From: Macrostomum lignano
Lineage: Eukaryota
NCBI GenBank assembly: GCA_002269645.1
Contig: NIVC01004380.1
Location: 1 to 48,015, forward strand
Direction: 5' to 3'
DNA: 48,015 nt
The notes beneath the pieces are model-generated. The model had not been told where the DNA came from and did no database searches. It saw only the letters and a list, made by a program, of their open reading frames with translations. This document shows, piece by piece, positions 1 to 48,015 of the stretch (the first letter of the stretch is position 1; the number at the start of each line of letters is the position of its first letter). Made by a program: the position numbers and the translations under genes.

Positions 1-1703
1 CAAGTAGACTCTCAATATCAGCATAAACCAAATACAGCGGCGGCAGTCGAGTCTCGTAGGCTGAAAAAGACAAAAGTGCTTTGCCCTCCTCTGGTAAAAC
101 CTCCTCCGTGACTGGCTTTGGCGTTCGAATGAAGCCGCCGCCGCCGCCGCCTGGTTGCTCCTCCGTCGTCTGGCCACACACGTGTTCTTTCAAGATATAA
201 TCCCAAGACGTGGTGTGAATAAAGCTCGCCAGACATTCAGGACAATAGCGCCGGCGTTTAGCACGAGAACTCAACAGCCTATCCAGATTTAGCACCGCCA
301 TGTAGTGTCCATACTTGAATTCTGCGTAAGGTGGTATGAACAGACAATTGACTGGCGCAAGGTCACCAGTGGAACGACGAAAATTAAAAAACAGCACGGC
401 AGTATTCGTGGCATGACTCCAGACAAACACACGCATCAGTCTAATTCGAGGGTTCAGCCGGCAAAACTTTCTGTAGCTCCCAATTGAGTGACGAGTCACT
501 CCGGCGCGCGTAAATCGAAAGCTTTTCAGCCAAGGCCTGTAAGACGCCTTTCGCCTTTTACGGGCTTGCCCTTCGACCTGTGAGGAAAAGACGCTCGACA
601 CGACAGCATACATAAAACAATCATGCTGATCTGCTCGGTGCGGGCGTAGAAACAAAACCGCTCCCGGCATACGACCAACAGCCAGTGGAACGCGGAATGG
701 AACGGAACGGGTCGGAGCGGATTCTGTTGGACCGCCGCCCGCCTGCGCGCCCGCCGCCGCCGCCGCCACGCCCGCCGCCACCACCACCGCCGCCCGCCAC
801 CCGCTCCCCACACGTCCTGCTGCTGTGCCGACGACTGCTAGTGTTCGACTGTAGTAGTAGATATTTTCGGCGGAATATGCACAGCATAACGTCGACCTTG
901 ACAACGCCGAGGAACTTCCAGTTACTACCTCGGGACTGAAAGTTGTCTAATTTAGCTACCAGATCGTTTGTTGCCTCGCTGTACCATTGGTTGAAAACGT
1001 CCTCAGAGAGAAGAAGTACACGGCGGCGCGGCGGCTGGAGCATTCGCATCGAAGGAGACCATAACGACTTTGGAATTGAAAAAGGGCGCGATTACTTCTA
1101 CCTCTTCGTTGTGGGGGATTCACCAACAGCCGTGTCATTGGCGGGGGGATAACGAGTACGATACATTTTTACATTAAGATGTATACATGTACGGAGTAAA
1201 CAGTCCGCAGATCCGAGAGAGTTAAAAAGACGAAAAAGTGGAACTTGCAGTTGTGGAAGTAACTCGCTGGGTGGTTCGGTCTCGCCATCGTCCTCGTCCA
1301 GCAGAGGCGTGAACGTCAGAAAGTTCGCCCGACCTCGGTGTGCGGACTCGGTATGTTGTACCGACCAGCCTGGTGGAGTGTCCTCTTCGATTAGCCGACG
1401 CACTGGTTCTCGAAGTAAAAGTTGGTCTGGTTGATAGCACGAGCCATTGTGCGAGTGCCCATGGAGGGCGGCTTGACTGTTGAATCTCTGCCGGCACACA
1501 GGGCATCTGATTTGTTTCGTCGTCGTCGTCGACGGCTGGAATGGTGTTGGCGATTGTTGGCGATGGGGTGGTTGTGATAATCGCCTAAATAGTTTGCTCG
1601 GTGGCAAAAATAAGGAAGGAATGCACAGCCTTAAGTTTGGTGGACAGTCCGAAAATGTCCTCCGCCGCGTGGTTAAACTGTATTTTACTTTGCAGAGATA
1701 CAA
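1..1703 (-). pseudogene. polB: Family B DNA polymerase, Maverick/adintovirus type, N-terminal half (frameshifted, truncated by window edge)
   Basis: Stitching frames gives: C2H2-like CPVCRQRFNSQAALHGHSH (~1510-1450); EVIAPFFNSKVV (~1095-1060); LDNFQSRGSNWKF (GSGW-type motif, ~950-915); HDCFMYAVVSSV (~625-590); YGHYMAVLNLDRLL...YCPECLASF...EHVC (~315-175); and Exo I VYADIESLL at 28-2. At least 3 frame changes (~1115, ~1030, ~740). The last frame is open from 946 to the edge and is absent from the ORF track. The start codon is not resolved. Confidence 0.82.
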
Positions 1704-1981
1704 TTATGTAGACAATTTGAATATTTAGGAATGAACAGCAGGCTAGTAAGTAGTAGGTCGTTGATGGTGGTTGAAAGAATAGTCAATGGTAGTGTTTTTA
1801 GGGGTCTGAATCAGTTCGAATGGATCATCATGATAAACAAAAATCGTTGGGTACGCATTGGAATTTTACCTTCAGGTAGTAATAGTGGTAGGTGGTGTTT
1901 TTTCAACTTGGTAGGGGCTCGGTTGAATTTAGGTGTTTATTACTACAGCAGAAAATCGTTGTTGTTAATATCAAGTGCATG

Positions 1982-3363
1982 TCAGAGCTCACGACGAATG
2001 ATGCCGCCAACAAGATGGGCTAGATCGGTCGTAGATGTATCCGATCTGATTAGAATTTCGTGTACGTTCGAGTAGTCCTGGTAGTGTCGTGTAAACGCCT
2101 CGTCTAGCGACCGTAGATAGTCCAGGGAGATGCCAGTCTCCTCACCGCTGCGTCCGCGCTGCGCGATGCGTTGAATGGCCAACTCCGGGTCAATGCGCAG
2201 GTAAATAAGCGTCGTGTTCGCGCCGGTAAAGGGTACCCCAGTCGCTTCGAGGACGTCTAGTTGGCGCTGAGCAATCGCCCATTCGGTGTCAGACAGCGAG
2301 CCTTGACGGTGTAGTACGTCTTGGAATGCTCGAGCCGACCCGAGGCAGCGGTCGAGGATAACCACCTTGTTGTTGGATTGTTGGTTAACCTCATTCCGGA
2401 CCTGGGTGGTAACACAAGATTGGCAAAAGTAGCTATACCGTGCGTGTCTTTCGACATTGGTTGTACATGCAGTAGGAGCTATACGAAAGGAATTGCTAGA
2501 TACTATAGTACCACTTACTTTGCTGTCTCTGTCGAGCAAGTCGTGGGAGACGTGCTGTTGGAATGCGACGGCCGGAAGCTCGCCTCGATAGAATGACTGA
2601 AGCAGATTTACCGAGTCCGGGAGGAGCGGGTGTCGCGCGTACTGGTGAACAGGCTCGGGACCGAAGACGGCTTTGTCGGCCCAACCCTCGAGGCGGGAGG
2701 TGAGAGCCAGTTCTCGAAGCAACGTCGACTTCCCGGCACCGATTACGCCCTCCAGGAGAAAAATGCGAGACTGGCTCGTCATATTGGCTAGAATTGGAAC
2801 AAATTCTGGTTTCGGAGCGGCTTCCTGACACAATTGTTTAACAATGTTGATCATTTCTAAAATCTGGCTAGTAGTCTTTGCACCTATTATAACGATCTTA
2901 AGGGAATGAAAAATATTGCACACCGTCCTATTGAGTGGAGCAGTACTACGGAGGGTGATGGCTTGTGGGAATATCTCCGCGTCGTAATACAGCCGAGCTG
3001 TGTGAAACGGCCCGATAAAGTTTTTCAGGGTCGAAAATTTGAGTCCAGGATAGTGGAGCAGACCAACGGTTGTAGAGCTGATTATACGAATCGATGTTTT
3101 GATTAGTTTAATTACTTTAAGGTGTATGAAATTCAGGGCACGTAGAAGTTGGACTCGGGATCTACAGCCATAAAGCGTGAGTAGTCCTCCGGGTAGAACT
3201 GACATGAAAATTGGGGCAGTCCGATACGAAGCATACTTGGCTTGGCGGAGTATAATTTGGAGGGGATTCCCGCCTGGCCTAGACGTTTTTTTAGCCTATT
3301 TAAATCTAACTTTTCTCCTGGAGGGGTACTCGTTCTGGCTTGCACTATTAGTAGGACCAATCT
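1982..3363 (-). CDS. TBP-like (two-repeat TATA-binding protein fold) domain fused to a deoxynucleoside/thymidine kinase; one frameshift near 3192 and one probable intron
   Basis: N-part LIVQ..GEKLDLNRL..YSAKPSMLRI..QFYP/GGLLTLYGCRS resembles TBP repeat 1, and YDAEIFPQ..IFHSLKIVIIGAK resembles repeat 2 (YEPELFPG..IFVSGKVVLTGAK). C-part has dNK motifs LEGVIGAGKST, PEPV, AFQ, ILDRC, IYLRIDPE..QRIAQRGR..E...SLDYL. Confidence 0.78.
2402..2518 (-). other. Predicted 117-nt phase-0 spliceosomal intron in the kinase domain
   Basis: Donor AAA|GTAAGT at 2518 and acceptor TGTGTTACCACCCAG|GTC at 2402. Removal deletes a 39-aa insertion and gives DLLDRDSK|VRNEVNQQSNNKVVILDRC, closer to normal dNK spacing. 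Confidence 0.65.
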
Positions 3364-3495
3364 CTGAAAAGAATAAATACGAGAAAAAATTCTGTATAAC
3401 GGTTAAGATTTTTATATATTTCTGGGTGATGCGTTTCCGTTTACGGAGAATGGTAGTTAGAGTTATAGGTATAGCTTCCCGCCACCAAGTGAACG

Positions 3496-4593
3496 CTAAC
3501 GGTCACTGTGCGAAGACTTCATCATCTTCGCTGTCCATGGGCTCCGTCGAGGCCCCGAGTCCACGTCCCCTAGCGCTGGGTTGGAGGCTGCAGCTTTACC
3601 CGCTTTGGGGACAGTATTGGTAACACCGCTTACAAGATCTTTGACGGGAGTCACCGTGATCCAGTCTTCAGCTGCTGCTGCTGTTGTTGCTGCTCCAGTC
3701 GTCTTGGTGGGGCGTTTGGCGGGGCTGCGACGAGTTGGGCCTTGTCGTCGTTTTCGTCCGCTAACTGGTTTCACTAGCGTCGTCGTAGTTGTTGACTCTT
3801 CTTCCTCAGTTGCGGCGGTGGCGGCGATTGGAGTCGACGTAGTTGGGATGTGAAAACGCAAAGCTTGGGCTAGCATCGGCAGGTGTTTCGGGTCGTCGTC
3901 GACCAGTGTCAGCGAGCGAAGGGCGAGGCCGAGGCGCCATGTCTTGCTTTCCTTCTGACGATAAAGACTTGTGAGCTGAACGGAGAGATGGTAAAGACCG
4001 CTAAGTCCCCTCAGCTCGCTTGTGTCAACTTCACGTGGGTGTTGATTAGGCAGTGCTCGAAAGGTGAAACATGGTAGTGTAGGTTTTATGGCAATCCACT
4101 GGGCAAAGCCCAGGTCGCCTTCCTCGGTGGCGCGGGAGATGCGAAGCAGCGGCATCGGATCGCCCATTTGCTTTAGTTTGATAGCGATGCCTCTTTCGAC
4201 TTGTCTAGCGAGAGCAAGGGGAATGAAAAGCAGTAAGAATTCATGGTCTAGTGAGTATGCACATGTAACAAGGATGGCGAATTCTTCAACTTACTTGATG
4301 CATTGTAGGAATTTGCTGCAAAAGGCCGATGATGACAGTCCGATGGCCACCGCCTCACGGTCTCCGGCTAAAAACTCTCCGGCATCCTGTATTTGGACAC
4401 CACGAAGAATCTCGACTGGGGTCGTGGTTTGAATCACTAGTGGGGACCTCCTGTCGACTTTGGGGGGCGTCCACGTTACGCTACGGAAGGTGCAGCTTGC
4501 TGTAGGAGCGTTGGGTTCGCCTAGGTGGAGATTACCAACGTCGGCTTGGATAGCACCCGGTTGGAATACGGATTCGGCAGCGAAACCAGCCAT
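3496..4593 (-). CDS. Two-exon gene (4593-4295 + 4204-3496), putative OB-fold ssDNA-binding protein with a low-complexity T/A/K tail
   Basis: ATG in ACACCATGG context. ORFs 4291-4593 and 3496-4167 share a frame; the intervening stop lies in CAA|GTAAGT, and a pyrimidine-rich acceptor ends at 4205 (90-nt intron). The spliced product reads FCSKFLQCIK|QVERGIAIKL. The SSB call is from a recalled pattern only (LVIQTT.P; YHLSVQLTSLY..WRLGLAL). Confidence 0.6.
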
Positions 4594-4680
4594 GGTGTTG
4601 ATCTTGCCTTGCTCGGAACGCGTGTTTGAAGTGCCTTCTATTTGGAGTCTTAATGAAGATTTTATTTCGTTTAGGGGTAC

Positions 4681-4690
4681 CTATTTTATA
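4681..4690 (-). promoter_or_regulatory. TATA-like box upstream of the SSB-like gene
   Basis: TATAAAATAG on the minus strand, ~90 nt upstream of the ATG at 4593. Confidence 0.35.
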
Positions 4691-5292
4691 GAGTTGTTTT
4701 TTAAGGGGGGCGTGGGATCGTTGAAGATTGTAGTTGGTCTTCTGGCTGGTGAATTCCCAGGGACTTTGACATTTTGTTAAAGAGTTTAGGGTTGGTGAGA
4801 TGCGATGCAAATATACGTGCGTTAAGAGATAATTTTGGCATTATAGTAGTGCGTGCAAATCGGTGAATTGATTTGACATGCTATTTAAGTTCACTAATTT
4901 GGTGTTCACTAGTGAATAGGAAATTGATCTCACTCGATGCGTTCGGGTTATAGTAGGCTAGGGTCGGTGAATTGACTGCATGCATTTCATGGGCGTAAAT
5001 TGCGTGCTCATTGCTGGATTGATAAAAATTTGGAAATGCCTGCACCCTAGTTTGGGTCACGGGTGACGTTTTCCCATAGAGGTCGGTTTGTAGAAAGATA
5101 CCGAAAGGGGGGTTTTTACTGGCTTCGGCATTGAGTGGTTGGTTGACAGCGCGGCGCTATCTATATGCTATATGCCGATAACGGAAATTGTGCAATCCCC
5201 CGCGTGGGTTGAGTTTCATATGAAGGGGAGATCTAGGTCATTGAGTTAGAGAGGAGACTTGGAACTGTTCGAACGATAGATTGCGAATGACA

Positions 5293-6747
5293 ATGGCCGA
5301 GGCTCAGGACGGATCGCGGGAAGAGTATTGGAAGGCACAGGAGGGATACTTTGAAGAATTGGAACGCAAATTCGCTTTCGTGGACTACGGTAGCGATCGA
5401 CTCCGACGAGTGTCGCCCTTGAGTAGACCGTCTGGTAAGTATAGTTTTTTATGACTGCCACTCCTCTTGTATGGCACCGTATTTTGATAGGGCATCATAT
5501 ACCGACTTCAGTAGACGGGCAGCAAGACCTCCGTCCGGTCGCGGTAGTTCCGCCTAGTGTGCGTGGCCGCGAGGATCCCTATGACGGGGAAATTACTATA
5601 GGGAGGAATACGTTCCCACCAAGGACAGAGGTATGTAATATGCATTCTGAGTTCGATTGCTTTGTGGTAGTATAACTTACTATGCCTTCATCTACTGGTA
5701 GGATTACTTCAACGCAAGGACGGCAGCTTTGGAGGAGCTACGTGAGGGGCGACCCGAGGTTCGCTATCGTGACGCGGGTTACGACGTAAGATTGATTTTT
5801 AAGTTAGTAGTGCCTGAGCTTGTACTTGACGAGTTCATTTTGCCTTTTTTAGCAACTATGCATGAGTGACCGAGTAGTTTTGCAGCACCAGTGGGCGACG
5901 GCAGTTTGTACGCGAATGCATGAACTGGTGCCGGAGATGGTGGCTCGGGGAAGGGAGGTACGAGACAATATTCGTATGCTTTTCTTATCACATATTGCAT
6001 TAATAAATAAAGAATTTCCATTCTCATTTTAGGAGTTTTTAGCCATGGTGAGTGGAGATGTGCTTTTTGGTGTGGTATAATTCACTCGTCCGTATGAAAA
6101 TAAATTTACTTGTCTGTTCTTTATTCTTGAATCGTAGATTCGCGGACGTGGTCGTCGGACTCGAAACGAGGTATGGATATTGTTATTTTAATTGAGTGTG
6201 ATCCTAGTTCAATATTGTAGCCCAGTTGTATTTTCTGCTGTTGCATATTCCAGGCTGCGTGTGTTTCGTCCAGCCCCACACAGCTTACAATGGTCAGTAG
6301 TCGCTTGGCATTGATTAAACATTTAAGATATAAAGGCTGGAATCTTATTTGACATTTCAGGCGAATTGCGCGATCGGAGAAGGGCGAGCTCCCGGACCAC
6401 CGCAGCCATGTGTCCCGGTTAGTGATACATCGAAAACCATGCTCTTTATTTTGGCGGTATGTACATAAGTAGCTCGGTTTGGGAGGTGCTCTTCACGTGC
6501 CGGTTTAAGATGGAGTTACGAGGTTTTATGGTAGTAGAATTCGTGTTATTTAGTGTGAGACGGGACCGTTAATGCATGAACCAGTTCTACTTTATGCTGC
6601 CACGCATTCAAGACTGCATGGCATTGATTAAAACTTGAGGGTGTAAAACAGTTGAAATCTTATTTTTTTAAATTGCAGACAAATTTCGTGTTCGGACGGG
6701 GGCGGACTCCTGGACCGCCGCAACCTTCCACGGTTGGTGTTACGTAG
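5293..6747 (+). CDS. Predicted 9-exon gene (~240 aa), unknown function
   Basis: Exons 5293-5434, 5491-5630, 5702-5785, 5853-5957, 6033-6047, 6138-6170, 6254-6292, 6361-6456, 6679-6747. All 8 introns are GT..AG (56, 71, 67, 75, 90, 83, 68, 222 nt), the frame stays open across every junction, and seven introns are phase 0. The product has an internal repeat: EEYWKAQEGYFEELER..FVDYGSDRL vs EDYFNARTAALEELRE..YRDAGYDQL. Confidence 0.68.
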
Positions 6748-6870
6748 AAGAATATGCTCTTCTTTGTAGGGTGTTCACAGTCATATCGGGTGGGGGGGGC
6801 AGGTTGGTAGTGGTTTAGGGTGAAATATGCAAGTCTATGGTGGTAGAGTTTGTGTTACAACAAAGAGTTA
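6305..6870 (+). repeat. Diverged tandem duplication of an intron-exon-intron module (~6305-6560 and ~6620-6870)
   Basis: Both copies begin ggcattgattaaa..aatcttattt..cag and encode G.GR.PGPPQP...MLF. Confidence 0.75.
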
Positions 6871-7994
6871 TTTATACAATCAAATTTCAGATTCCGAAGC
6901 CGCCATCCGGAAGTGGATTCCCTGGTGGTGGTAGGGTTAGTAAATTTTATATTGATTGCAGCGTAGTAAATTGACCTGGTAAATGTATGTCATCTTCTTT
7001 GGTTTCAGGATGCGGACCTGTCGTAGGCATTCGGGACTCGGCGTGTGGGTTGGTTGACTCCGTCGCCGCCGTCGGCTTGTTTATGTGGACTGTAGGGGAC
7101 TTGTATTTGTAAATGTTTCGTATGCGACTTTTATTCAGTGAAGGCTTGGACATATGTGTCTATTTATTCTTTTGGATTCGCTCTGTGTGCAGTATCGTAC
7201 ATGTAAATACAGTGTGGCGTAGATCCAAGGCCTTCGTTCGATGTAAGGGCTTGCCAGCGGGGTGTCTGTCTTGTTGTGTCATCGGTGGAAATATAGCGTT
7301 GTTAAAGGATAGGTTTGGATCTTGTTTGTCTTAGGGCTAAAGAGAGGGGTGATAAACTCGGGGTTTGAGTTTTCGGTGGTGTGGTTAGTTCTAGGGCTTC
7401 TGGGGTGGGGGGTCTGTATTATGGGGTCTGGTTTATCTCAAGTGGGGGGTGAAGCATGGGGGGTGGGAGTCGAATCACCCCGGGGGAATCTTAACGCGGC
7501 AATATTTTTTAAATCGCATGTAATTTGCTTTAGTTCTTTAAATTCAACTTTTATTCAATTTTATTTTATTTACTTGTTAAAAACTTTTAATACACAAATG
7601 TACCGGTTCGTCAATGAATGTATTAAAACTTGTAGTGCTAAAATACACGGATTCGATGTTGGTTGAAGTAGCTACTGAAGCCGGCGTTCAATCGAGAGGG
7701 CGGATAAGATAAACAAAAGTGCAAGATATGCATATGTAGATGCCGCGGAGACGGATGAAAAGTAACAGAAAATATGCGAAAAAGTATAAGTACGAATATG
7801 AGTGGTTGGTATCGAGGTTTTGAGTTCTATGGGTAAAATATTGAAGCCTAGTGACGGTCCCCCTGGTTCTAATCTGTACTACATAAAAATGGAAAATACT
7901 ATCCTGATCCTAAAATTGTAGACGTTTCGAGAAGTTTAACAATACAGCATAATAATGTTTGTTAGCAGGTAGGCGAGTACACTTAATGGCGGAT

Positions 7995-8576
7995 TCAGTC
8001 AATCAACACGGCCGTGGACGATAGTGGAAAGGTCGGCATGGACGGCGAGCGTGGTGTTGAGGTCCATGTTGGGGCAGCACGGCGGTTTGGGTTCGGTCCG
8101 GGTGAAGGTGTTTCGGTGCTGACTCTGCAAATAAGAGCGGAATGCTTCGGTAGTTGGGGGCCATGTTTCGGATAATGATTAGAATTTACTTACGTCTGAG
8201 TGGCTTGAGAATACTCTTGGCTACGGAAGTCATTCGGACGGCGGGACTCGGGAGAGCGGATGCGTTTGTAGCAGTGGTGAATCAAAGCGAGCACCAGGAA
8301 CAGAAAAATAATTAGACAAACGACCTTCAGGGCCACCAGTTGCGTACTTGCTAGGTTGATTAGTTTGTTGACGCTTTCTCCGATTGCGGTAACCATTTGG
8401 GTATTATTGTATGCCTGGACGGCTATACGATTTCGGAGCTCTTCTTGGGAGTAATGGGAATTCTCGGATAATTGTCTGACAACTGCCGAAAGTTGTCGGG
8501 TAGTTTCCGCGTTGTTTTGGGTGGCTTGGGCCTGTTTAATAAACACAGCCAGTATTTTTTGTAGTCGGTTCGCCAT
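7995..8576 (-). CDS. Small single-pass membrane protein: coiled-coil N-terminus, TM helix, basic then Pro/Ser/Thr-rich tail (2 exons: 8576-8194, 8124-7995)
   Basis: TM segment LVALKVVCLIIFLFLVLALI followed by HHCYKRIR. The ORF stop at 8190 lies inside donor AC|GTAAGT; acceptor CTCTTATTTGCAG ends at 8125 (69-nt intron). Splicing adds TVSTETPSPGPNPNRRAAPTW...AVLID*. Confidence 0.62.
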
Positions 8577-9065
8577 TAAGATGGTTATACGAGACTCGGT
8601 GAACTAATAATAAACTTGCCAGACTATTCACTCGAGAATCCGACTTGACGCTGTTTTTAGCGCTTGCGTCTAGAAGTTTGTATCTGTTCAAACCCTCAAG
8701 TCGTGGGGAGGGGTGGGGGTGGGGGGTAAAGGTTGTGCGCGGGTGGTTGATGAGAATCGGATTTTAATCGATTAATGTGGCGGGGGAGTGTACATTTCGC
8801 TGTGTGCGCCCTAGCGTTTGGGGTAAGGTCTTTTCTCGGAAATGTAGCACTTATGGTCCGGCGGGAACGGAGTATGGATCGTAGAGTTGGTATAGAATGC
8901 AAGTGGTTTATTTACGGAGCAAGTGGTTATTATGATCTATTCAATATCTATTACTGGAAGTGACGCAAGCCGCGCTCGTGGATAGTGTTGCCTAAGGCCG
9001 AGTAAAGCGTATACCTTATCGTGCGTTTAACACGGTTTCGGAATTTGAAGTGCTTGGTGAATAGT

Positions 9066-9467
9066 CTATTGGTTTCCACCTACTCGGGTGCGACTGCGAG
9101 TATAAGATAAGTAGGGGTACGATTTGTAGGCGGCTCGCTTGAGCGTGTTAGGACGGGTGGGGACTGTATTCATTTTTACATGTAAAAATGAGGGGTGCGT
9201 GTAATATACTAATACTACTAGCGTGTTGTCGAGTGTGGTCTGATTCCCTTCAGCTGGCGGGGGCAGAGCTCGGATTATGTCTGCAATTTCTTTCCCTGCT
9301 GTGTAGCTTAGCAGCTTGCACCGTTGGTTTTCATTGGTGATGCCCGAAGCGTCAATGAAATCTTGAAAGCGTGCTGACCACTCGCTCCAGCGTTTGCCAG
9401 CATTGTGAGGGTCGCTAATAATTGAGAACGGCTCTGGTGGGGGTAGTGAAACGTAGTTAGTGCCCAT
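9066..9467 (-). CDS. Gypsy-type gag N-terminal domain-like ORF (~133 aa), not followed by pol or an LTR
   Basis: MGTNYVSLPPPEPF..AGKRWSEWSARFQDFIDASGI..QRCKLLSYTAGKEIADII..LVYYTHP matches the W..W..RF / LL...G gag N-terminal pattern of many invertebrate Gypsy elements. Confidence 0.62.
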   Translation of the reverse strand: MGTNYVSLPPPEPFSIISDPHNAGKRWSEWSARFQDFIDASGITNENQRCKLLSYTAGKEIADIIRALPPPAEGNQTTLDNTLVVLVYYTHPSFLHVKMNTVPTRPNTLKRAAYKSYPYLSYTRSRTRVGGNQ

Positions 9468-9676
9468 TGCCCTCGCGTAGGTTTGTGTGTTTGCGACGCC
9501 ACTGTAGGAAGTCTGACAAGCCGTGTGAGTTTGCTTGGATCGATACAGATAGCAAAGTTCCAAATACGAGTAAATGCCAATGCGTGTATTTAAATATTAG
9601 TCAATGGGGGGTTGGCGCGTGCATGGTTAGAGAGTTGAATGTACGCCGATATAGAATGACACTGCTAAGGCGCAAG

Positions 9677-12600
9677 CCTACAATCTCTACAATCTCATCT
9701 CTCCTTTCTCCCCTCTTCTTACATCCCTCTCTTATCTCTATTATCTCTATCTCTTCTCTTCTCACTCTTCTCTCCCCCTCTTATCTTCTCTCTTCTCTAT
9801 CCTTTCTACTCTCTCCTCTCCTCTTGACCCTCTGTCATCTTCTTTCTGCTCTCTCATCTCTACTCTTTTCTCACTCTTCTCTACTCTCCTCTCATCGATC
9901 CTCTGTCTCATCTCTCCCCCCCTTCTCACCTTTACTCTTTCCTCTCCCTCCTTTCTCCCCTCCTCTCGCTTCTTCCTCCTTTCTTCTCTGCTCTCTCCTC
10001 ACCACTTGTCTCTTCTCTTATCTTCCATGTTTTCTCTTATCCCCGTCCCGCCTCTCCTCTCTTCTAATAGTCTATTCCGTCTCCTTTCCACTCTCATCTG
10101 GCCCGCACATAAGCTGGATTCTTTATCTGGCTTTTGAAGTAAAAGTCTGCCGATCACTGCTTCGAAAGCCAGTTTGTGGGACGTACTACTCTCATCGTTA
10201 TTCTCATGCTTTGATCACGTCATCTTTCTTGCCAATTTGCAGCCCTGAAAGGAATTTGTGTATCTTCAGCTCCACTGCAGTCTGCATCAGTCTAACAACC
10301 AAGGAAATACGCATTTCTTAGGCCATTTAAATTTCAAAGTACTTTTAAGAGAAACTTAAAATTTCCATGGTGTGCCTAATTTAGTAGGGTTGTATTTCAT
10401 TGCATCGCATCACCTTTTCATAAATATTTCGCTTTTACAAACCATGCTGGATTGCCTCGATTTGCCAATTGCCATCCACTGTTAAACTGCTGCAGAGTTT
10501 GCCTATACAGAGGGGAGGGCAGTGGTTAGAATTTCTCACTAAACTGTTATGGCTAAACGTAGCCTCTCGACTCTCGGGGTGCGAGAAGGCTATGAAAAAA
10601 GTTATTCCAAAACACTGTACATTTGCTATGTACATTCAGTCCTATCGCCTGACCCTTCGTCTGAGCTGGGGGAATGAGTGAGTGAGCGGCACAAACAACA
10701 GAAAAAGCAGACAAACTTCACATGCTTACAGTTTCTGTCCTGATTAAGATACAGAGTTGAGACTTTACATGTAGGCAGAAAATGAGTCAATAAAGAATTG
10801 TGTCAAATTTGAAGTCAATCGCTTCACGTGGAGCAAAACTATGGCAGCCGAAAGTTAGGCATTTTAAAACCTATTCACACCCTTTGCCAGGGATAGCGAC
10901 GTTTGCCTGCGGGACGTTTGCCAGCCGACGTTTGCCTGCGGGACGCTTGCCAGCCGACATTTGCCAGCCGACGTTTGCCAGCCGACGTTTGCCAGCGGGA
11001 CGTTTGCCAGCCGAAGTTTGCCTGCCGGACGTTTGCCAGCCGACGTTTGCCTGCGGGACGTTTGCCAGCCGACATTTGCCAGCCGACGTTTGCCAGCCGA
11101 CGTTTGCCAGCGGGACGTTTGCCAGCCGAAGTTTGCCTGCCGGACGTTTGCCTGCCGAATGTTTGCCAGCCGACGTTTGCCAGCCCACGTTTGCCAGCCG
11201 ACGTTTGCCAGCGGGACGTTTGCCAGCCGAAGTTTGCCTGCCGGACGTTTGCCTGCCGAATGTTTGCCAGCCGACGTTTGCCAGCGGGACGTTTGCCAGC
11301 CGAAGTTTGCCTGCCGGACGTTTGCCTGCCGAATGTTTGCCAGCCGACGTTTGCCAGCCGACGTTTGCCAGCCGACGTTTGCCAGCGGGACGTTTGCCAG
11401 CCGAAGTTTGCCTGCCGGACGTTTGCCTGCCGAATGTTTGCCAGCCGACGTTTGCCAGCGGGACGTTTGCCAGCCGAAGTTTGCCTGCCGGACGTTTGCC
11501 TGCCGAATGTTTGCCAGCCGACGTTTGCCAGCCGACGTTTGCCTGCCGGAAGTTTGCCAGCCAAAATTTGCTAGCCAATATAAAGCCAGTCAGTGAAAAA
11601 TTTGATACTGAAACATTCGCAGTTTAGCGGTTTGACAAAAACCGTTTTTACTCCAACTTTTTGACGGTTATTCGCATGTATACAAGTTTGAAAGCAAAAT
11701 ATATAAATTATGCAGTTCATCAGTCTAACGTCTAATATCTAGTTTAACAACGATTTTGGCACAACATATCAAAAGATGAACATTGGGTTTGCCTCGTATG
11801 AAAGCAATAACAATTGTTGTGCTGAAAAGATGAAAACTTCCTATCTCCCTATGGCCTTCAAAACATTTTTCATAGATTTCGAGTGCTGCGTACTTCTACT
11901 TTAGTAGTCCTTGGCATGACTAAGCTTTGCATACGTAGTGTCTAGCGCTTGCTATTCTACTAGCTTGCTACTGGTGGCTTGTCTGGCTTTCAGCTATATA
12001 GCTTACTATAAAAACGTACCGCATTCGACTCGTCTACACATGTACGTTGAGATCGCGGTTTCCTTGCTTACTTGAGTAGTAAAAAAACAGCATTGGAATC
12101 AATTTGCTTACTTTTAGATCTCCCAATGAACTGAGAAATATATGAGCCAGAATTACCGCTCAGCAGCTCTTTTTGTTTGCCTCATAACTTAATCGCTGGA
12201 GATTCCCGTTGTAATCTGCGCGTCTTCTTTCGCACATCAAAAATCAAACATCTCAAACTGGGAAAAACGATACACAATTGTCAAAAGTAAACAATATTTT
12301 CACATTCAAAGAAAATCGTTGTTAAACTGGATATTAGATGTAAATCTATATAAATTGCATAATTTATATAGATTTTGCATAAATTTCATAATTTATATAT
12401 TTTGCTTTCAAACTTGTATATATGCGAATAACCGTCAAAAAGTTGGAGTAAAAACGGTTTTTGTCAAACCGCTAAACTGCGAATGTTTCAGTATCAAATT
12501 TTTCACTGACTGGCTTTATATTGGCTAGCAAATTTTGGCTGGCAAACTTCCGGCAGGCAAGCGTCGGCTGGCAAACGTCGGCTGGCAAACATCCGGCAGG

Positions 12601-13358
12601 CAAACGTCGGCTGGCAAATGTCGGCTGGCAAACGTCCGACTGGCAAACGTCCCGCTGGCAAACGTCGGCTGGCAAATGTCGGCTGGCAAATGTCGGCTGG
12701 CAAATGTCGGCTGGCAAACGTCGGCTGGCAAACGTCGGCTGGCAAACGTCCCGCAGGCAAACGTCCGGCAGGCAAACTTCGGCTGGCAAACGTCCCGCTG
12801 GCAAACGTCGGCTGGCAAACGTCGGCTGGCAAACGTCCCGCAGGCAAACGTCCGGCAGGCAAACTTCGGCTGGCAAACGTCCCGCTGGCAAACGTCGGCT
12901 GGCAAACGTCGGCTGGCAAACGTCGGCTGGCAAACGTCCCGCAGGCAAACGTCGGCTGGCAAACGTCCCGCAGGCAAACGTCGTAGACCCCCTTTGCCCA
13001 GATCGGTATCGGGAAAGAGAGGCAGGCGGGCGGAGGTTGGGGTGGCTGCCTCGCTGAAAAAAACAGCCTAACTTTAAAAGTGCACAGCACCGCTCAGGAT
13101 TAACTTTGAGACTCGAAATTTTACATGATTGTGCCAAAATAGTTGATCGCGCATTTTGAGCAGTTTTTTGTACTTTTAGGCAGGAAGACTTGATTCTAGG
13201 AAATTTAAAGGTAGCCTAAGACATTCTCCGTAGTAAGTTTAGGGTGGGTGTAAAGTTTGGTGTCATTTGGTTGAGCGGTTTGGGAGTCCATAGCGAAGTA
13301 ATTTGTCCACAGACAGACAGACAGACAGACAGACAGAGTTTTGATTTTTAAATGTAGA
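9677..13358 (-). mobile_element. Non-autonomous Helitron-like unit L1 (3'-truncated), interrupted by a foldback element
   Basis: CT-rich block (9677-10090), a conserved core shared with L2, and (ACAG)n near a 5' terminus TCTACATTTAAAAATC at 13358. This layout resembles Lep1-like non-autonomous Helitrons. Confidence 0.55.
10890..12990. mobile_element. Foldback-like non-autonomous DNA transposon (2.1 kb) with long modular inverted arms
   Basis: Arms ~10890-11756 and ~12312-12990 are inverted copies built of 14-15-bp GTTTGCCAGCCGAC-type tandem repeats plus ~190 bp of unique sequence. Ends GGG...CCC. TSD cctttgcc(c)a at 10881-10889 and 12991-13000; single-copy empty site at 19160-19169. Confidence 0.85.
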
Positions 13359-15694: not shown

Positions 15695-18283
15695 TTAACG
15701 CGGTCGATTGCAACGCTCGTAGGTGTTGCAGCGACCTCGCGCACGAAGAGCAGCCTTCAGAGAGCGATGTGCTCGCTCCACTAGACCATTGGCTCGGGGG
15801 TTATACGCTGAGGTTCTTATGTGATGGATGCCGAACAGCTTAGTAAACTCTTCCATGAGCTCTGCACGGAACTGGGCACCCTGGTCCGTAATGAGCGTCA
15901 GGGGTGGGCCAAAGCGTGACACCCAGGCGCTGAGGAATCCTTGAGCTACAGATGCGGCAGAGATGTCTATCAGCGGAATGGCCTCCAACCATCGGGTGTA
16001 GGCGTCGATGACTGTCAGTAGATAACGTGACTGTAGTTGACCGTTAGCCTCTGGTGGTGTTAGTGGTCCGACAATATCCATGTGTACCGTCGCGAATCGC
16101 TGAGAGGGAGTCGGTAACTGGTGTAATGGTCGGTGTACATGCTGAGTTACTTTGTTGGCTTGGCATTGTAGGCATTCCTCCGTCCAACGGCGCACATCGC
16201 GAGAGATCTCCGGCCAGAAGTAGCGATGGGTGATCAATCGACAGCTCGCCTTGACACCAGGATGGGCCAATGAATGAATCGATGTGAAGATGTGTTTTCG
16301 CAAGTCTGGTGGAACGACTGGTCGCGGATTGGGGTATGACGTTTCGCAGAGCAGTTTACAGTCAGTCAGTCCGATTTCGAACAACTTGAAAGTGCTGGAT
16401 TGCGATGGCAACGTTGAATCCAGCTGTTGAGCGCGTGCAATTGCGGGCAGGTCAAAACTGGGCAACATTTGAGTGTCTTCGTCCGTTGGGGCTATCTCAT
16501 GAGCGGCCGCGACCAGAAATTCTGATGTTGCGATGTTGACAGCGTCTTTCGAGGGACGGGACAGCGCATCAGCAACGACGTTGTCTTTACCGGCGATGTG
16601 AACCACGTCCGTGACAATCTCTGAGATTGCTGACATCTGGCGCTGCTGTCTGTCCGAGAAGCGTTCCTTGCTGCTTGCAAAGGCTCCGATAATTGGCTTG
16701 TGGTCGCAGAATACCGTCACTGTCTGGCCTTGCAGCAGGTGCTTCCATGCCTTGATGGCGGCGAAGATAGCAAGTAGCTCCCGGTCGAAGGTGCTGTATT
16801 TAGTTTCGGTGTCGGAAAGTTTTCTGGACAGAAACGCGAGAGGCGTAGAGTCGCCGTCTACGACCTGGTGCAGACAGGCACCGATCGCCATGGCACTGGC
16901 ATCCGTTGTTACTGTGAAGTTGGCCTCCGGATGCGGAAAAGCGAGAGTGACCGCGTCAGCGAGCGCGTCTTGCAGCGCCCGCCATGCCTGGTCATGTTCT
17001 GGGAGCCAACTGAAGGTGCCGTGCAAAAGTTGTCGCAGCGGGAGTAGCAGCTGTGCGTAGTGCTGAATGTGGCGTTGGTAAAAGCCGAACATGCCGAGGT
17101 ATCGCTGCAACTCCCTGCTGTCCTTGGGTGGAGGAAGAGCACGTAGGGCGTCGACTCGATCGGACAGCGGTCGGATCCCGTCTCCAGAAATCTGATGGCC
17201 CAGGAACTCGATTGTATCCTGATAGAATTGGCAATTGTGAGGGCTTACACGCAGTCCGTTGTCGCACAGGCGTTGCAGTACGGCATGTAGATGTGTCTCG
17301 TGCTCCTCGCGGCAGGTGCTGTGGATCAGAATATCGTCAATGTAGGTGACCACGAATGGCATGTCGCGGAAAATCGCGTCGACGAACCGTTGAAAGGTAC
17401 TGGCCGCGTTGCGTAGTCCAAATGGCATGCGCAGATACTCAAACGAACCGAATGGCGTGCAAACTGCAGTCTTCTCTATGTCCTCCGCCGCGATGGGTAC
17501 GAAGTGGTAAGCTTTGACAAGGTCAAGCTTACTGAAAACCCGTGACCCGTGAAGTCGATGGTGAAAGTGTCCGATGTGGGGTATCGGGTAGCGATCTGGC
17601 TTGGTTACTGCGTTGAGTGCGCGGTAGTCGCCGCAGGGACGCCACGAGCCGTCCTTTTTCTTCACCATGTGAAGAGGGGACGCCCATGGACTGGCGGAAG
17701 GTCGCACGATGCCGAGCTGCAGCAGTTGGTCAAACTCCGCCTTCGCTGCGTCGAACTTGGCTGGAGGGAGCGGACGAGGTCGGCAGAATAGCGGCTTGCT
17801 GTCGGTAATTATCTGGTGGCTGACTGTGCTAGACGAAGGTGCGGACGAATAGTCTGGGGCTTCTGCTAGCTGCGGGAAAGCATCAAGGGGTGTCGCTAAC
17901 ACTTCCGATGTTGCTAGCACCTGTGGGGCTGAGTCTGCTGTTGCTTGAAGAGCTGCATGAAGTTGAGTAGTCGGGTCATGCAGACGTCTGTTCCGCATGT
18001 CAATAAGGAGACCGAACTTAGCCAGGAAGTCGGCTCCCAGAATCGGCGGTGTATCAGCAACGATGAAGTTCGCGGGAAACAGGCGGCGTAGCTCTGGGAC
18101 TGCGACAGACAGTGAGCACTGACCGAGAGTACTAAATTCGCGACCATCGACGCTGCGTAGCCGGACCTGCGTGGGTGCCAGCAGGTGGCGAGGTGCAAGG
18201 TCCAAAGGCAGCAGGGAGCGCTCAGCACCGGTGTCCACAACAAAACGAACCGTTTTTCCGAACAATTTACAGGGTAACAACAA
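15695..18283 (-). CDS. pol: Gypsy pol: protease-RT-RNase H-integrase (integrase C-terminal part internally deleted)
   Basis: VVDTGAE; [29 protein letters not shown]; [25 protein letters not shown]; HHCC (HSLAHPG..CLQC); [22 protein letters not shown]. The C-terminal [14 protein letters not shown] follows in another frame. Confidence 0.95.
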
Positions 18284-21514: not shown

Positions 21515-22470
21515 CTAAAACAAAGCAGAGACACCACCGGCAAAAGTCACAGCAGCCTCCGCTGCCTGGTGAAACTGGGGGAGATAACGCTGCACAGCCT
21601 CACTTCTCCAGTCACCAATGCGCATGATATCAGACACTGGGAGGCCTAGCACAGACGCCCAGGTAGCTCCTCCTCGTCGCAGACTGTGCGCGGAGTAAGA
21701 TCCTGGTCGAACGCCGGCTGCGGCAAACTTGTCACGGAGGAAGCAGTCCAGGTGCCTCCCAGTCAGCAGGCGCAAGCCGCCACTTCCGTCGGCGTAGGAC
21801 CAGAGCGGTGACTCTGCTGACTTCAACCCGTTGGCGCGGATGTGTCGCTCGACTGCGCTCACAGGGCACAGGGCTGGCTGCCGCGCCAATCTCGGCAGCA
21901 GTACCCGGTGACTGCGCTCCTTAAACTGGATGGTCTTGCCGAACTCGCAGCGCAACACCAGACCCTTCGGATGCTGAAGCAGGTCGGCGCGCCGGGAAAG
22001 GGCCGGGCCTTTGCCAGTTCGCGGCAGAAGGCTGGACTTTCGCAACATTCCCCACCAGCAGCAGATGGTCACAGCCCAGCAGGCCAGCTGCAGCCTGTCG
22101 GTCTCGTCAACTAGTCGTCGCATCTCCGTCAGCATTGTAGGTGACACAGGCCGCTTTCGGTTCACGCGCAGTCCGAGGACCCGTTTAGCGCCGCGTAGGA
22201 GAAGAACCGCTGAAGCGTGCTTAGTCAGGTCCGGCGACGAGTTTATTCGAAACCAGAGCGACAGAGAGCTGCAGACTGCCGAGATGCTGCTGTAGGCATG
22301 TAGCCGTGTGCCGATCAGACTGGCCAAATAGTTCAGCAGGCTCGTGACGTTGCAGGACACTGGATCGCAGCCGGTATGGCGGCAGAACTCCTGCCACTCA
22401 CGGATGTGTCTATTGACTGCCTGCGCCGACCGCGGTGCGTACGCAGCGCTCAGCAGCGATGTAGCGCGGC
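21515..22470 (-). CDS. Tyrosine recombinase (DIRS/Ngaro type)
   Basis: CWWGMLRKSSLL, YSAHSLRRGGATW, IGDWRSEAVQRY. The frame stays open upstream of the annotated 22360 start (AYAPRSAQAVNRHIREWQEFC), overlapping the end of RNase H. Confidence 0.92.
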
Positions 22471-23040
22471 TGCTAAGAGAGTCTGACGCAGCTGGGCGGC
22501 CTGAAAATGAAGAAAGGAGGCGGTCGCCAAGCCAAAAGCATGCTGATGCAGTGATTGTAGAATGCTAGGACAAATAAAACCATAACAGCGGAGTAAAAAG
22601 TTTAACAGCTGGCCTCGCTCGTGCAACCGCGAGGCAGCGTCAGCAAAAATTTGAAAATCACCAGGCACATGAAACGCGCGAATGCTCATTCCAAAACGCA
22701 AACACATCAGAGCCACCGTCTGCAGCAGCCGCTGCAACGCAGGACACTTTGAAACGCCTTTGTTGATGATGTGACAGGCCGTCTGGTTGTCGCAGTAGAT
22801 GCTCACCTTGCAACCTTTGAGCACATCCCTCCACCTCATCACTGCCAGCAGAGGGGCCAACGCTTCCTTGTAGTTGATCGGCAGGTCAGCGAAGACAGAT
22901 CCTGCATCCTTCTCCCAGTCCAGGTAGCATCAGTCAAACAGACCATCCTGGTCACGCAGCAGCGCCGCACCACCTCTGCCGCACGCATCGGATTCCATCG
23001 CCACAACTCGATTGTAGCTCGGCCACAGCTGCAGCTTCAA
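22450..23040 (-). pseudogene. DIRS-type RNase H, with an internal stop; RT absent
   Basis: ESDAC..D*CYLDW..INYKEAL..IYCDNQ..HVPG..ADAASR; joined directly to truncated gag sequence. Confidence 0.85.
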
Positions 23041-23650
23041 CAGCTTCCTTCACTCTGAAGGTGACTCTCCCTGATTTGTCAATGGACTGAGTCACTCCTG
23101 CCTCCTGCTGCTTTCGCTTGTTAATAAACTCAGGGATTCGGTACACCTTGCCTACAGACCGACTGGGCTCTTGCTGGGCAGCATCTTCATCGTCAGACCA
23201 CAGGTTAATGAGCAACTCACCGGGATTCTTTGACGTCGCAGGCCTTCGCTGAAGTTGGCTGACTTCCGCCTGAAGCAGAGCGGCCTCCTTGCGTAGCTTT
23301 AGCAGTCGGAGCTGCTTCTCAGCCTCCACCAGCTCGTCGTCTAGGCCGCCAGCCGCGTCAGACTCTTGACCATGTTGTACCGACTCGTTCGCGATAAAAG
23401 GCAGTTGCCTCTCCGCCGTAGCGCCGTTTCTTCTTTCACGCGTCGTCACTGTGGCAGCTTCATCTTGCTCCTCGTCCTCGTCGTCTGCATTCTCAAGATC
23501 GGAGGCGATGCGCACGAGGTGCGCCCTCAGCCGCATTAAAAGTTCACATTTTCTGCCTTGTGTTGAAAGCCCTAGGCTCTGAAGCTTCTCACGTAGCGCC
23601 CTTACAGTGCTAGGCGCTTCGGATGCAACTGGCTCGTTAGGGTTTGGCAT
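22952..23650 (-). CDS. gag-like ORF1 with N-terminal SAP-like motif, 3'-truncated
   Basis: TVRALREKLQSLGLSTQGRKCELLMRL (SAP pattern), acidic stretch and coiled coil; ATG directly after repeat A1. Confidence 0.68.
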   Translation of the reverse strand: MPNPNEPVASEAPSTVRALREKLQSLGLSTQGRKCELLMRLRAHLVRIASDLENADDEDEEQDEAATVTTRERRNGATAERQLPFIANESVQHGQESDAAGGLDDELVEAEKQLRLLKLRKEAALLQAEVSQLQRRPATSKNPGELLINLWSDDEDAAQQEPSRSVGKVYRIPEFINKRKQQEAGVTQSIDKSGRVTFRVKEAVEAAAVAELQSSCGDGIRCVRQRWCGAAA

Positions 23651-25747: not shown

Positions 25748-28700
25748 TCAGTTCTGCTTGCCGATGAGCTGGCGCAGAACAATGTTTCTCGTCCGTCCGC
25801 CTGGAGCCCGAACTTGAACGCCATCGGCACTCCGCGCACGACTCAGAGCCACGTAGAGCTGGCCATGCTGAAAGCAGGCCGTCGCCAGGTCGACGGCGTA
25901 GGTGCTCAGCGTCTGGCCTTGGCTACGGTGGATGGTCATGGCGAAGCACAGCCGGATCGGGAACTGCAGGCGGCGGAAGGTGAAGGGCAGCTCGGTTGGA
26001 CTCGGCTCCTGAGGGATCCGCGGGATGAAAACCTGCCGCCCGCGGTAGACGCCCGTGGCGACCTCCGCGAGCAGGACGTTGTCCCGCAGTTCGCGCAGCA
26101 GCAGCCGGGTCCCGTTGCACAGCAGCGGAGGGTCCAAGTTCCTGGTCATCATGACCGGCATGCCGACCTTCAGCTCTAGCCGGTGATGTGGCAGGCCGTT
26201 GGGGTCCAGCCGGTTCAGCAGCTCCGGCGGGAAGTTGGTCGCTGCCGTGTCGTCATTCGGAATCGAGTCGACCGACAGGTAGACCCGACTCTCGCCGGGG
26301 AAGAGCGCCAAGCAGGCGGCGTTGGCTTCGTCTACCGTCTTGTTGAGCGGTGATAAAATGCTCCGCTCCGCGAACATCTGGTCACGGTCGGGGCTGGGCT
26401 CAAACGACGGGTAGACGTGTTGGATGAGCTGCTCAGTAGTTGTGTCATCAGGCATGAGAATCTCGCTAGGCAAGGAAACCATGCCCTCTTCATCCTCTGG
26501 CAGCTCGCCGTTGCCAACCTAGCAGATAGAGTGATATGCGAAAGTGCATTATAATTTAATATTTTTACTGATCCTATGGGTTCCTATAGGTTAATGTAAA
26601 AATACCATATTTAGTTTTTAAGTTTTAATATTTTGATTTGATAAATACGATATGTATTGACACGGCATAATACGAAGGAGCATCAAAAGAGATCAATCAC
26701 CTGCACGAGAAAATCTGCGTAGCCCTGGAAAGCAGAACCGCTCTCCAACCGCAGATTTTTTGTCAGATTGTGCCTTCGGAAGTGCGGCCACAACTCCGAC
26801 CGAGTCAAACAGGCCTCGATGGTGTTGGCATGCGTTCCTCCGGGAACCACAGCCAGCAGCTGGCGAAAGTCGCCAGCCAGCACCAGCAGCGCTCCTCCGA
26901 ACGGCCGGTCGTTGCGCAGCAGATCCCGCAGAGACCGCTCGACCATCTCCAGGTCCTTGCGGTGCGTCATTGGCGCTTCGTCCCAAACAAGGAGCCGCGT
27001 GTCCCGCAGCATCTCAGCCAGCTTGCTCCGTCGGCCGATGGAACAGAAGGCATTGTCAAGACGCACCGCGCTGACGGGAATCTTGAACCTGGGCAGGTTG
27101 AAACAGCATTTATATGCAGAGACAATAGTATAATTTGCAGAAGTACTGCATGTACATGTAAGCATGATCTTAAAAGAAAAATACAGAAATGGCTTATCCT
27201 CTAAAAATATTTGATGTCATTCAAGTTATAATCAAGTTTAAATAAAAAATCCAAGTTATTTTGACATTTTAATTTCTTAGTAAACAGTTTTTTAAAGATT
27301 TTAAAGACAACTCACATGGAATGTGCGGTCCTTCCCCCGGGAAGAATGGTTGCCGCAGTTCCAGACGACGCCACGGCAACAGCGATCTGACGCCTTGCTC
27401 GAACGCAGTTCAGCAGCAACGTCAGCAAGAACGTCTTTCCTGTTCCGCCGGGGGCATCGATAAAATGCAGTCCACCGCCACCGGTCTCCAGATTGGACTG
27501 CACGGCCTCAAAAATCATTCGCTGCTCTTCAGTAAGCATGCCGATCTGGGCCTGGACTTCCGCGTGGAGCTCAGCGGCTTCTTGCGGTGTCGGCAGGCAG
27601 TCGGAATGCTGGCGACTCTGAGAAAATAAATTCAACTTTCAGCGTTCAAGTTCAAGTGCGCTTTCGATATGGATTTCTGATAATACTAAATAAAGATTAA
27701 AGGAAATTCACCTGATCTGGCTGAACATGAGGCTCAGGCAGTCCGTAGGCAGGCAGCTCAGCGCCTCCCATGGTGTTCAGCAGTTTCTGCAGCTCTCGCA
27801 GAACCTCCGACTCGGCAGCCTCAGGGCTATAGCCTTGGTGCAGCAGATCACCGGCCAACTCGCCGGAGAACTCCTGCCACAGCTTTGCCGGGTCGCTGGA
27901 GTCGCCGTGCGACAGAATGGCAGCGAAAAGGCGGCGCAGAGCCGCTGGCAGCCGCGTCTCCGAGGCTTCGCACAGGCACAGTCGCCAGTGCCTGTCGTCC
28001 TCCAGGAGTCCGCGGGCCTGGCAGGCGGCCTTGAAAGTCGGCAGCAGGACGCCGTCTACGGTGCGCAACGCCTCAAACGACGTCGGGCCGCGCATATTCA
28101 CCAGCAGCAGTCGCAGGTAGAAACAGTCTCCCATCCGAGGGCTGACTGTATAGACGCGGCCGATGTTGCCAGTCGTCAGCACGCCAGCTGGCTGATCAGC
28201 AGCGACTCGGCCGCGACCTGCGCGATGCCACTGGTGCGCACTTCTGTCCCAGGTGAAGTGCCGGGGCACCTCCTGGTACAGCAGGCCTCGTGCAACGGCA
28301 TCCTGGCGGCAGAGCTGCGAGATTAAGATTTTGATAAGAGAATTAAAAGTCACAGTTGACATTTTAAACTATATTTTACCAATATGAGGTCTTTATTTTC
28401 AGAAATAACTTACATAAAAAAAGGCGGTCAACGTCGTGGGCTTAGGCTGAGCAGCAACAGCCTGAGCTGTCTCGGGCGTGAAGCAGACGCGCTGGTCGTC
28501 CTTCAGATGAACGGCCAGCCTGATGACAGCCGGATACCGACTGTGCACTTCAAAGCCCAAGATGGTGTTAACCGCCTCCATAGGACCAATGTACCGGCCC
28601 AGAAGGTACTCCTTGATCTCATCGACCTCCTTGCGCTTCGCCGGCGCCGCCTTAGTCTGAGCTGACTGCTGGGGCTGCTGATCGCCACTGGCCTGAAGAG

Positions 28701-32391: not shown

Positions 32392-33106
32392 TTTAAGGAA
32401 ATAGTAAATAGAAAAGGAAAAAAAGAGCAAAAATATGCAAATAGCAAAATCAGCAAATCAGATTTGAGAAATCTGTTATATGGAAAGAAAAAAACCTGAA
32501 TAGAAAATTCGCCTCTTTAAGAAGCGCCCATAGTGTACACGATTTTTCGTCAGTAAAATAATCAATAAAAAAGAGCCTCAAGAGCCCACCAGTCTGTCCG
32601 CCCAGCCAATGCAAGGGGCTGACTAAACGCGCCGATAATAAAACCAATCGAATCTCGACACAGTATATCTGTTTACACTGTACAACTGCTATGTACACTC
32701 AGCCCAAGCCCTACCCCCCAGTCTGGGGGAATCATTAAATTGAACTTAACCCCCCAACACGCGGGGGGTTTTATTTGCATTGAACGCAGAACACGCGCAC
32801 CCACCACCCCTCAATACACAGCGGCCCGCGGGCGGAGGTTGGGGTGGCTATTTTTACAAACTGGCTGCAGCCCCAGGCAGAGTGGCCAAAGAAGGTTATT
32901 GGGGGGTTAAAAAAGCAGTTTTCTGCTTTTTAAGGGATGTTAAAATTGGAAAATTAAAAATTAAAATAGCCTAAAGCCTGCTCCGGAAAATTTGCAGTTT
33001 TCCAATATAAGTTTCAACGCTGACTTGGCAGAATTGTAGGAGTTCACTTGCTACATACATACATACATACAGACAGACAAACATCGCTAGAGTTTTAGTA
33101 TAAGGA

Positions 33107-48015
<14,909 letters not shown>

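Follow-up and report, generated by a model that had tools for sequence, protein, structure and literature searches.

The 48,015-nt window analysed here, one whole contig (NIVC01004380.1) of the Macrostomum lignano assembly GCA_002269645.1, raises the question of whether a chain of very short exons inside a virus-like element is a genuine spliced gene and, if so, what the element does with it. A preliminary description, made from the letters alone, had linked nine exons by eight GT-AG introns at 5293-6747; these exist in the sequence and leave a frame of 241 codons open. Eight of the 24 listed public sequencing runs were aligned to the region, seven being RNA-like and one (X15) behaving like DNA; run type is a guess, no run being recorded as RNA, and the contigs carry no strand and hide rare isoforms. 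Exon-exon joints at GT-AG introns occur in contigs of four of the seven RNA-like runs (X5, X6, X7 and X8, from studies P2, P3 and P4), the other three (X1, X9 and X12) gave unspliced contigs only, and the DNA-like run contains no splice joint, with structural deletions alone. The corrected model comprises 11 exons on the forward strand (5287-7026) with a 717-nt coding sequence for 238 amino acids and 0 internal stops, and this structure is almost certainly correct.

The coding part of exon 1 (5287-5434) has in-frame ATG codons at 5287 and 5293 and ends at a donor (5435) from which X5 and X6 remove intron 1 (5435-5511, 77 nt); these two runs join to 5511 and not to the acceptor first placed at 5490, which had begun exon 2 at 5491. 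Exon 2 (5512-5630, 119 nt) is bounded by the joints 5434/5512 and 5630/5702 in RNA-like contigs, and is followed by intron 2 (5631-5701; X5, X6, X7 and X8), exon 3 (5702-5785, 84 nt, with a weak likeness to exon 1), intron 3 (5786-5852; X6, X7 and X8) and exon 4 (5853-5957, 105 nt), both exons having joints in RNA-like contigs. Exon 5 is a micro-exon of 15 nt (6033-6047), whose letters lie between the sides of the joint in X5 and at loose ends in X7, the same evidence defining the flanking introns 4 (5958-6032) and 5 (6048-6137); a copy at another locus (L009) has this 15-nt exon with both splice sites present. Exon 6 (6138-6170, 33 nt, Arg/Gly-rich) and exon 7 (6254-6292, 39 nt) are likewise joined in RNA-like contigs, with intron 6 (6171-6253) removed in X5, X7 and X8 and intron 7 (6293-6360) in X5 and X8, and the proposed exons of 15, 33 and 39 nt are thereby confirmed. 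Exon 8 (6361-6417, 57 nt, Gly/Pro-rich) is a paralogue of exon 9 (6679-6732, 54 nt, its tandem duplicate, with joints in RNA-like contigs) and is connected to it across intron 8 (6418-6678) by the joint 6417/6679 in X5 and X7; these runs use the donor at 6418 and not the one proposed at 6457, which had prolonged exon 8 to 6456. The stop codon originally assigned to 6745-6747 falls within intron 9 (6733-6890; X5, X6, X7 and X8), and two further exons lie downstream: exon 10 (6891-6935, 45 nt), beyond the original coordinates and joined in all four of these runs, and exon 11, whose coding part with the stop codon (7009-7026) follows intron 10 (6936-7008; the same four runs) in RNA-like contigs that extend to at least 7290-7390. 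The multi-exon gene was therefore rightly recognized but its exon count was not, and six of its eight predicted introns (introns 2-7) were exact, acceptor 1 and donor 8 being wrong.

Eight of the ten introns are 67-90 nt long, the remaining two being intron 9 (158 nt) and intron 8 (261 nt), and the exons have a GC content of 58% versus 37% for the introns, a contrast reached in none of 20,000 length permutations. Nine of the ten introns are in phase 0 (binomial p 0.005-0.023, against an assumed phase-0 background of 45-55%), and exons 3-10 are each removable in frame. Together with the exons of 15, 33 and 39 nt, this symmetry would suit a variation device resembling the micro-exon genes (MEGs) of schistosomes, in which many combinations of skipped exons yield a family of protein variants, as the preliminary description had proposed. 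However, the joints in all eight runs connect consecutive exons only (at contig depths of 3-19, with rare isoforms dropped from the contigs), and splicing is very probably constitutive in the main. Schistosome MEGs are characterized by micro-exons of at most 36 nt, a signal peptide, introns of 0.1-5 kb and variation by skipping, according to the accessible parts of PMC8293314 and 10.1101/2023.06.21.545858. The gene is like them in having several short symmetric exons, including one of 15 nt, a partly disordered product and a duplicated exon, but it differs in that it has no signal peptide, its introns are short (67-261 nt), its exons are mostly longer, no sequence links it to them, and it resides in a mobile element; only 66 of its 717 coding nucleotides (9%) are in exons of 36 nt or less, and 36% in exons no longer than 81 nt. 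A skipping-based variation device is thus very unlikely, the suggested likeness to flatworm MEGs does not hold, and the gene is likely to be an accessory regulator rather than a schistosome-style MEG.

Contigs that are unspliced or partly spliced carry variants matching copies 96% identical to this one, some of which are without the intron 1 donor or the intron 4 acceptor; antisense read-through is a possible alternative source of such contigs, which have no strand. The joints cannot derive from a processed copy in this assembly, because all 11 genomic matches to the gene retain introns, and a retrocopy was rejected as their source, there being no intronless copy among these matches. The possibility of a mirtron or small-RNA host gene was also rejected, with no Rfam match and no whole-intron hairpin; two of 11 intron pieces fold at a z of about -2. 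Origin from introners was rejected too, since the introns are not copies of one repeat: likeness among them is confined to a local duplication (intron 6 with 8, 7 with 8, and 8 with 9), that between introns 3 and 7 being marginal. In this respect the gene is unlike the introner-invaded Maverick-Polinton-like elements of dinoflagellates, which, in the accessible text of PMC11957031, resemble the present case in that spliceosomal introns are found in a Maverick-like element.

The preliminary description had placed a multi-exon gene with symmetric short exons in a virus-like element, and so it proves: the element is a Maverick/Polinton of about 20 kb, with the gene in its right arm. Bases 1-9223 of the window match another contig (C297) at 99%, and there the element continues to about 20 kb; in the window it extends past the start, with 5' pieces of a protein-primed DNA polymerase B at 2-1049 on the reverse strand. 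In the C297 copy, the polymerase matches PF03175 above the cut-off (E 3.4e-7) over several frames, the retroviral-like integrase matches PF00665 with E 3.2e-7 (31 bits versus a cut-off of 32.6), a packaging ATPase has Walker A and B motifs and a weak match to Pox_A32 (E 0.035), and a cysteine protease has a weak match to S273R (E 0.056). ORFs of 440 and 328 aa, neither with a match in Pfam or NCBIfam and the former with none in the PDB, are presumably capsid proteins, judging by sequence pattern and gene order, and small ORFs of the same copy (L017:212-520 and 779-1120; L016:5549-5956 and 5971-6267) are taken to resemble a PLA2-like protein, a dUTPase, a basic core protein and a chromodomain. 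The right terminal inverted repeat (9156-9219), which ends in (ACT)2, matches the left end in C297 at 94%; the repeats measure 64-71 nt, match at 93-94% and have the termini (AGT)2/(ACT)2. The adjoining 6 bp (9220-9225), a likely target-site duplication in a Gypsy gag, equal the left flank of the C297 copy, whose own right flank is different, and Gypsy pieces flank the insertion on both sides; we infer that the right flank in the window and the left flank in C297 stem from one insertion. That differing right flank of the C297 copy (C297:248366-268675, compared with 9220-9684 of the window) would reflect either recombination between copies or an assembly chimera.

Elsewhere in the window, two inverted arrays of a 14-15-nt repeat (10872-12996) have arms of up to 230 nt that are 97% complementary and foldback-like, and 32900-48015 is a tandem array whose units, about 2.2-2.8 kb long, contain CT-rich and 30-nt sub-repeats. 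Between them, on the reverse strand, are what we take to be a Gypsy-like pol (15695-17998), pieces of a tyrosine-recombinase retroelement (21515-23650) and a Helitron-like Rep/helicase spread over several exon-like ORFs (25748-30776).

A search of the genome (764 Mb in 5,269 contigs) returned 11 matches to the gene, all Maverick-linked, so other copies of the element carry it as well; eight have 95-100% identity, and the other three make up a 69%-identical subfamily within deleted Mavericks. Five copies that were examined have five different right flanks, so the gene moved along with the element, and it has reached at least five insertion sites. Splice sites are retained in copies down to the 69% subfamily, which has kept most of them, as well as the 15-nt exon 5, and which contains a stop codon and frameshifts. 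The capsid-like ORF has 97 genomic matches in several families at 33-100% identity, many of them near-identical, implying that Mavericks have recently been active in this genome.

Comparison with the 69% subfamily over 125 of the 238 codons (the indel-free parts of exons 1-4) gives a dN/dS of 0.36 (Fisher p 5e-6) and mismatches by codon position of 41/24/56, and frame-shifted controls for the same exons give 0.93 and 2.71. The values per exon are 0.26 for exon 1, 0.75 for part of exon 2, 0.60 for exon 3 and 0.19 for exon 4. Exons 1-4, which this test covered with the tail left out, were under purifying selection. Between young copies dN/dS is 0.51-0.55 for the whole gene, and among the three 96%-identical copies the constraint lies in exons 1-2 only (0.15-0.18, with 8 synonymous versus 4 non-synonymous changes, p 0.002), with exons 3-4 at 0.8-1.67 and exons 5-11 at 0.94-1.33. 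Introns, diverged by 3.6-3.9% versus 4.3-4.7% for exons (20% versus 30% in a gapped comparison), are not more diverged than exons, and this counts against a simple picture.

Such figures bear on the idea that the gene is a decaying remnant, once functional and still transcribed and spliced because its signals have not yet eroded. As assembled, nine of the 11 copies have a stop, a frameshift or a lost splice site (some of which may be long-read errors), the entire 69% subfamily being among those with stops and frameshifts; dN/dS is near 1 for exons 3-11 between young copies; and the variants in the unspliced contigs of X1, X9 and X12 are those of copies whose splice sites have been lost. Yet exons 1-2 are constrained even between those young copies, ten of the ten introns are still spliced, and similar relaxation in control genes of young copies (0.81 for the kinase gene and 0.80 for the SSB-like gene described below) is expected for integrated copies; pieces of the polymerase gave 0.34-0.41. 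A remnant is accordingly a distinctly unlikely explanation.

The internal repeat between exon 1 and exons 2/3/4 that had been offered as independent support for the frame is present but weak (score 36, matched by 60 of 5,000 shuffles). A stronger internal repeat, which had been overlooked, is that of exon 8 with exon 9, introns included. Local alignments place it at 6181-6857 on the forward strand, with unit 1 at about 6181-6548 and unit 2 at about 6544-6857; the unit is 310-370 nt long, and unit 2 is without most of the copy of exon 7. Exons 8 and 9, which are absent from the 69% subfamily, are the product of a tandem duplication that illustrates how the gene gains or loses phase-0 cassettes. 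The modularity claimed at the outset is thus found in DNA, as cassette duplication or loss between subfamilies, but not in RNA. In the 69% subfamily, a 32-nt unit over the exon 2 donor is present three times (L009:1300-1400), with one more in L011, resulting in tandem donor sites.

The product is predicted to be an intracellular protein of 238 aa, with no signal peptide (hydropathy averaged over 9 residues peaks at 0.23 within the first 35 windows) and no membrane span (19-residue hydropathy nowhere above 0.73). Residues 1-150 are acidic and include 14 aromatic residues, exon 1 being predicted as a single long acidic/aromatic helix (three-row model, pLDDT 77, pTM 0.35), and Gly, Pro, Ser and Arg make up 50% of the final 88 residues, where GRG, FGRG and PPQP motifs occur. 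Searches of Pfam, NCBIfam, PDB and Atlas with single exons were blank or gave chance matches, as did word-index searches with exon 1 against longer proteins and with a three-row exon 1 alignment against proteins of similar length, and a single-exon search of viral sequences (IMG/VR) gave no match. The sole HMMER match of single exons among 1.84 billion proteins, to an Ala/Gln/Asp/Gly/Ser stretch of a repetitive 1237-aa protein, was rejected, as were three 24-residue metagenome matches, of which the one inspected crosses ordinary bacterial ORFs. These single-exon queries revealed no relative beyond the element itself, and the gene appears to be an orphan.

The gene points away from the SSB-like, TBP-kinase and polymerase genes, with which it shares an intergenic stretch. 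Its divergent neighbour (3496-4593, reverse strand) has two exons and encodes a beta-rich protein of 335 aa that gives only weak OB-fold/SSB rows and no match at E 0.001; its intron (4205-4294) is spliced in X6, a candidate intron is at the matching place in all seven other loci examined, and its 63 genomic matches show it to be common to many Maverick families. Next to it, a TBP homologue is joined in one frame to a deoxynucleoside kinase (1982-3364, reverse strand; 5' end not mapped) and starts at an acceptor-like site, making a further exon likely. The 117-nt intron of this gene (2402-2518), removed in X6, is in frame and open, so ORF callers read through it. The TBP homologue has two full repeats, aligns in a profile search with solved TBPs across positions 17-176, at a best E of 2.8e-8, and has 62 genomic matches (other loci include L017:7276-7818, L044, L046, L048, L049 and L054), with Pfam TBP above the cut-off in three of four proteins scanned from other families; a word-index search with the TBP domain gave no match, and the literature search found no account of a Maverick TBP. 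The convergent neighbour (7995-8576, reverse strand, lower end approximate), which has a homologue in L047, encodes a 170-aa protein whose coiled-coil-like N-terminal part has a heptad-like pattern and which carries a single transmembrane segment, a Cys/basic patch and a Pro-rich tail spliced in X6 (intron 8125-8193), a layout loosely reminiscent of fusion-associated small transmembrane proteins. Four genes of one arm therefore have at least 13 spliced introns between them, the three in reverse-strand neighbours being known from X6, and with the candidate sites of the SSB-like gene in other loci this indicates that splicing is a trait of the whole arm. The element is like the intact vertebrate Mavericks of PMC8097293 in its polymerase B, integrase, ATPase, capsid-like and protease-like ORFs, its size of about 20 kb, its (AGT)2/(ACT)2 ends, its 6-bp duplication and its accessory regions at the ends, whereas those elements, in the accessible text, have no introns.

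Among 20 stretches around the neighbour genes at other Maverick loci, the gene was matched in only one, that of the same family. By eye, the same slot, which lies upstream of the SSB-like gene on the strand opposite to it, is occupied in three other families by unrelated forward-strand orphan ORFs that are intronless or have a single predicted intron; in the most numerous family it contains no clear gene. This absence from the matching slot of other families would fit a host gene captured with its introns, perhaps as a passenger or as half of a toxin-antidote pair, whose host parent was lost or diverged past detection. Nematode Mavericks carry such intron-bearing cargo (wasp proteases and krma kinases) beside intronless core genes, as reported in the accessible part of 10.1101/2022.07.12.499685, and the present gene is like that cargo in having spliceosomal introns, in lying in a variable region between core genes and the terminal inverted repeat, in being family-specific and in moving with the element; its ten introns, short and mostly unrelated, and its GC-rich exons also resemble those of an ordinary eukaryotic gene. 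Capture is nonetheless unlikely: exons 1, 2 and 4 match just the 11 Maverick-linked loci and nothing elsewhere in this genome, where host homologues of the nematode type outside Mavericks were not found; the product has no enzyme, toxin or ubiquitin-like domain and no relative in the collections searched; and the same-arm genes common to many families are also spliced, unlike the nematode core genes, so that introns here need no capture. Introns in a Maverick arm are already known in kind from the nematode cargo, as far as the accessible account goes; what sets the present case apart from earlier ones is ten introns within 1.7 kb, nine of them in phase 0, in a gene for which no relative was found, together with exon gain by tandem duplication within the element and spliced neighbours across families. 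No description of this element or of a multi-intron orphan Maverick gene was found in the literature searched, which did not include subscription papers, Repbase entries or supplements, and the accessible parts of PMC10748475, PMC12220804 and PMC12801592 contain nothing on spliceosomal introns in Mavericks.

The gene is transcribed, has its ten introns removed and moves with the element, past selection on its N-terminal half and duplication of a cassette in its tail completing the picture. The reading that we favour by a modest degree is that it encodes an intracellular, host-facing accessory regulator that helps expression or copying of the element. Host RNA polymerase II and the spliceosome would make one main mRNA, starting at a divergent promoter; the N-terminal half, helical and acidic/aromatic, may dock to a protein of the host or of the element; and the tail, rich in Gly/Pro/Arg and presumably disordered, would tolerate gain or loss of phase-0 cassettes, which may account for the predominance of phase 0. 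This slot, upstream of the polymerase, may be a fast-turnover position for regulators, comparable to that of the adintovirus Oncoid gene. Like Oncoid (PMC8502044, in its accessible text), the gene lies upstream of PolB, here by about 4 kb and on the opposite strand, and has a small low-complexity product expected to work via short motifs; unlike Oncoid, it has no LxCxE, CR1 or paired CxxC motif, and splicing is not mentioned in the main text of that source. A PxDLS motif is also absent from the product, as is any single CxxC. A narrower guess is that the GRG/FG tail, which we take to be similar to germ-granule motifs, might act in germ granules against silencing. A more elaborate proposal, which we regard as rather doubtful, is that this clade has an adenovirus-like, splicing-dependent early region made up of the spliced TBP-kinase, SSB-like and membrane protein genes and the regulator slot, and that the gene arose within the element, by duplication and loss of phase-0 cassettes and without capture, and works together with the TBP homologue of the element on its transcription.

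The genes of intact Mavericks are mostly reported to lack introns, which makes this spliced gene unusual, and Maverick annotation by ORF calling assumes that intact genes have none. Under this assumption, a gene such as this one goes unseen, as do the true ends of its three neighbours, and elements seem smaller or more decayed than is the case. Exon gain via cassette duplication has here been caught inside a virus-like genome. The many young transcribed copies would make the control of Maverick expression testable by RNAi and long-read RNA sequencing. Adenoviruses depend on the host spliceosome, and a selected, expressed and mobile gene with ten introns means that at least one clade of Mavericks does too.
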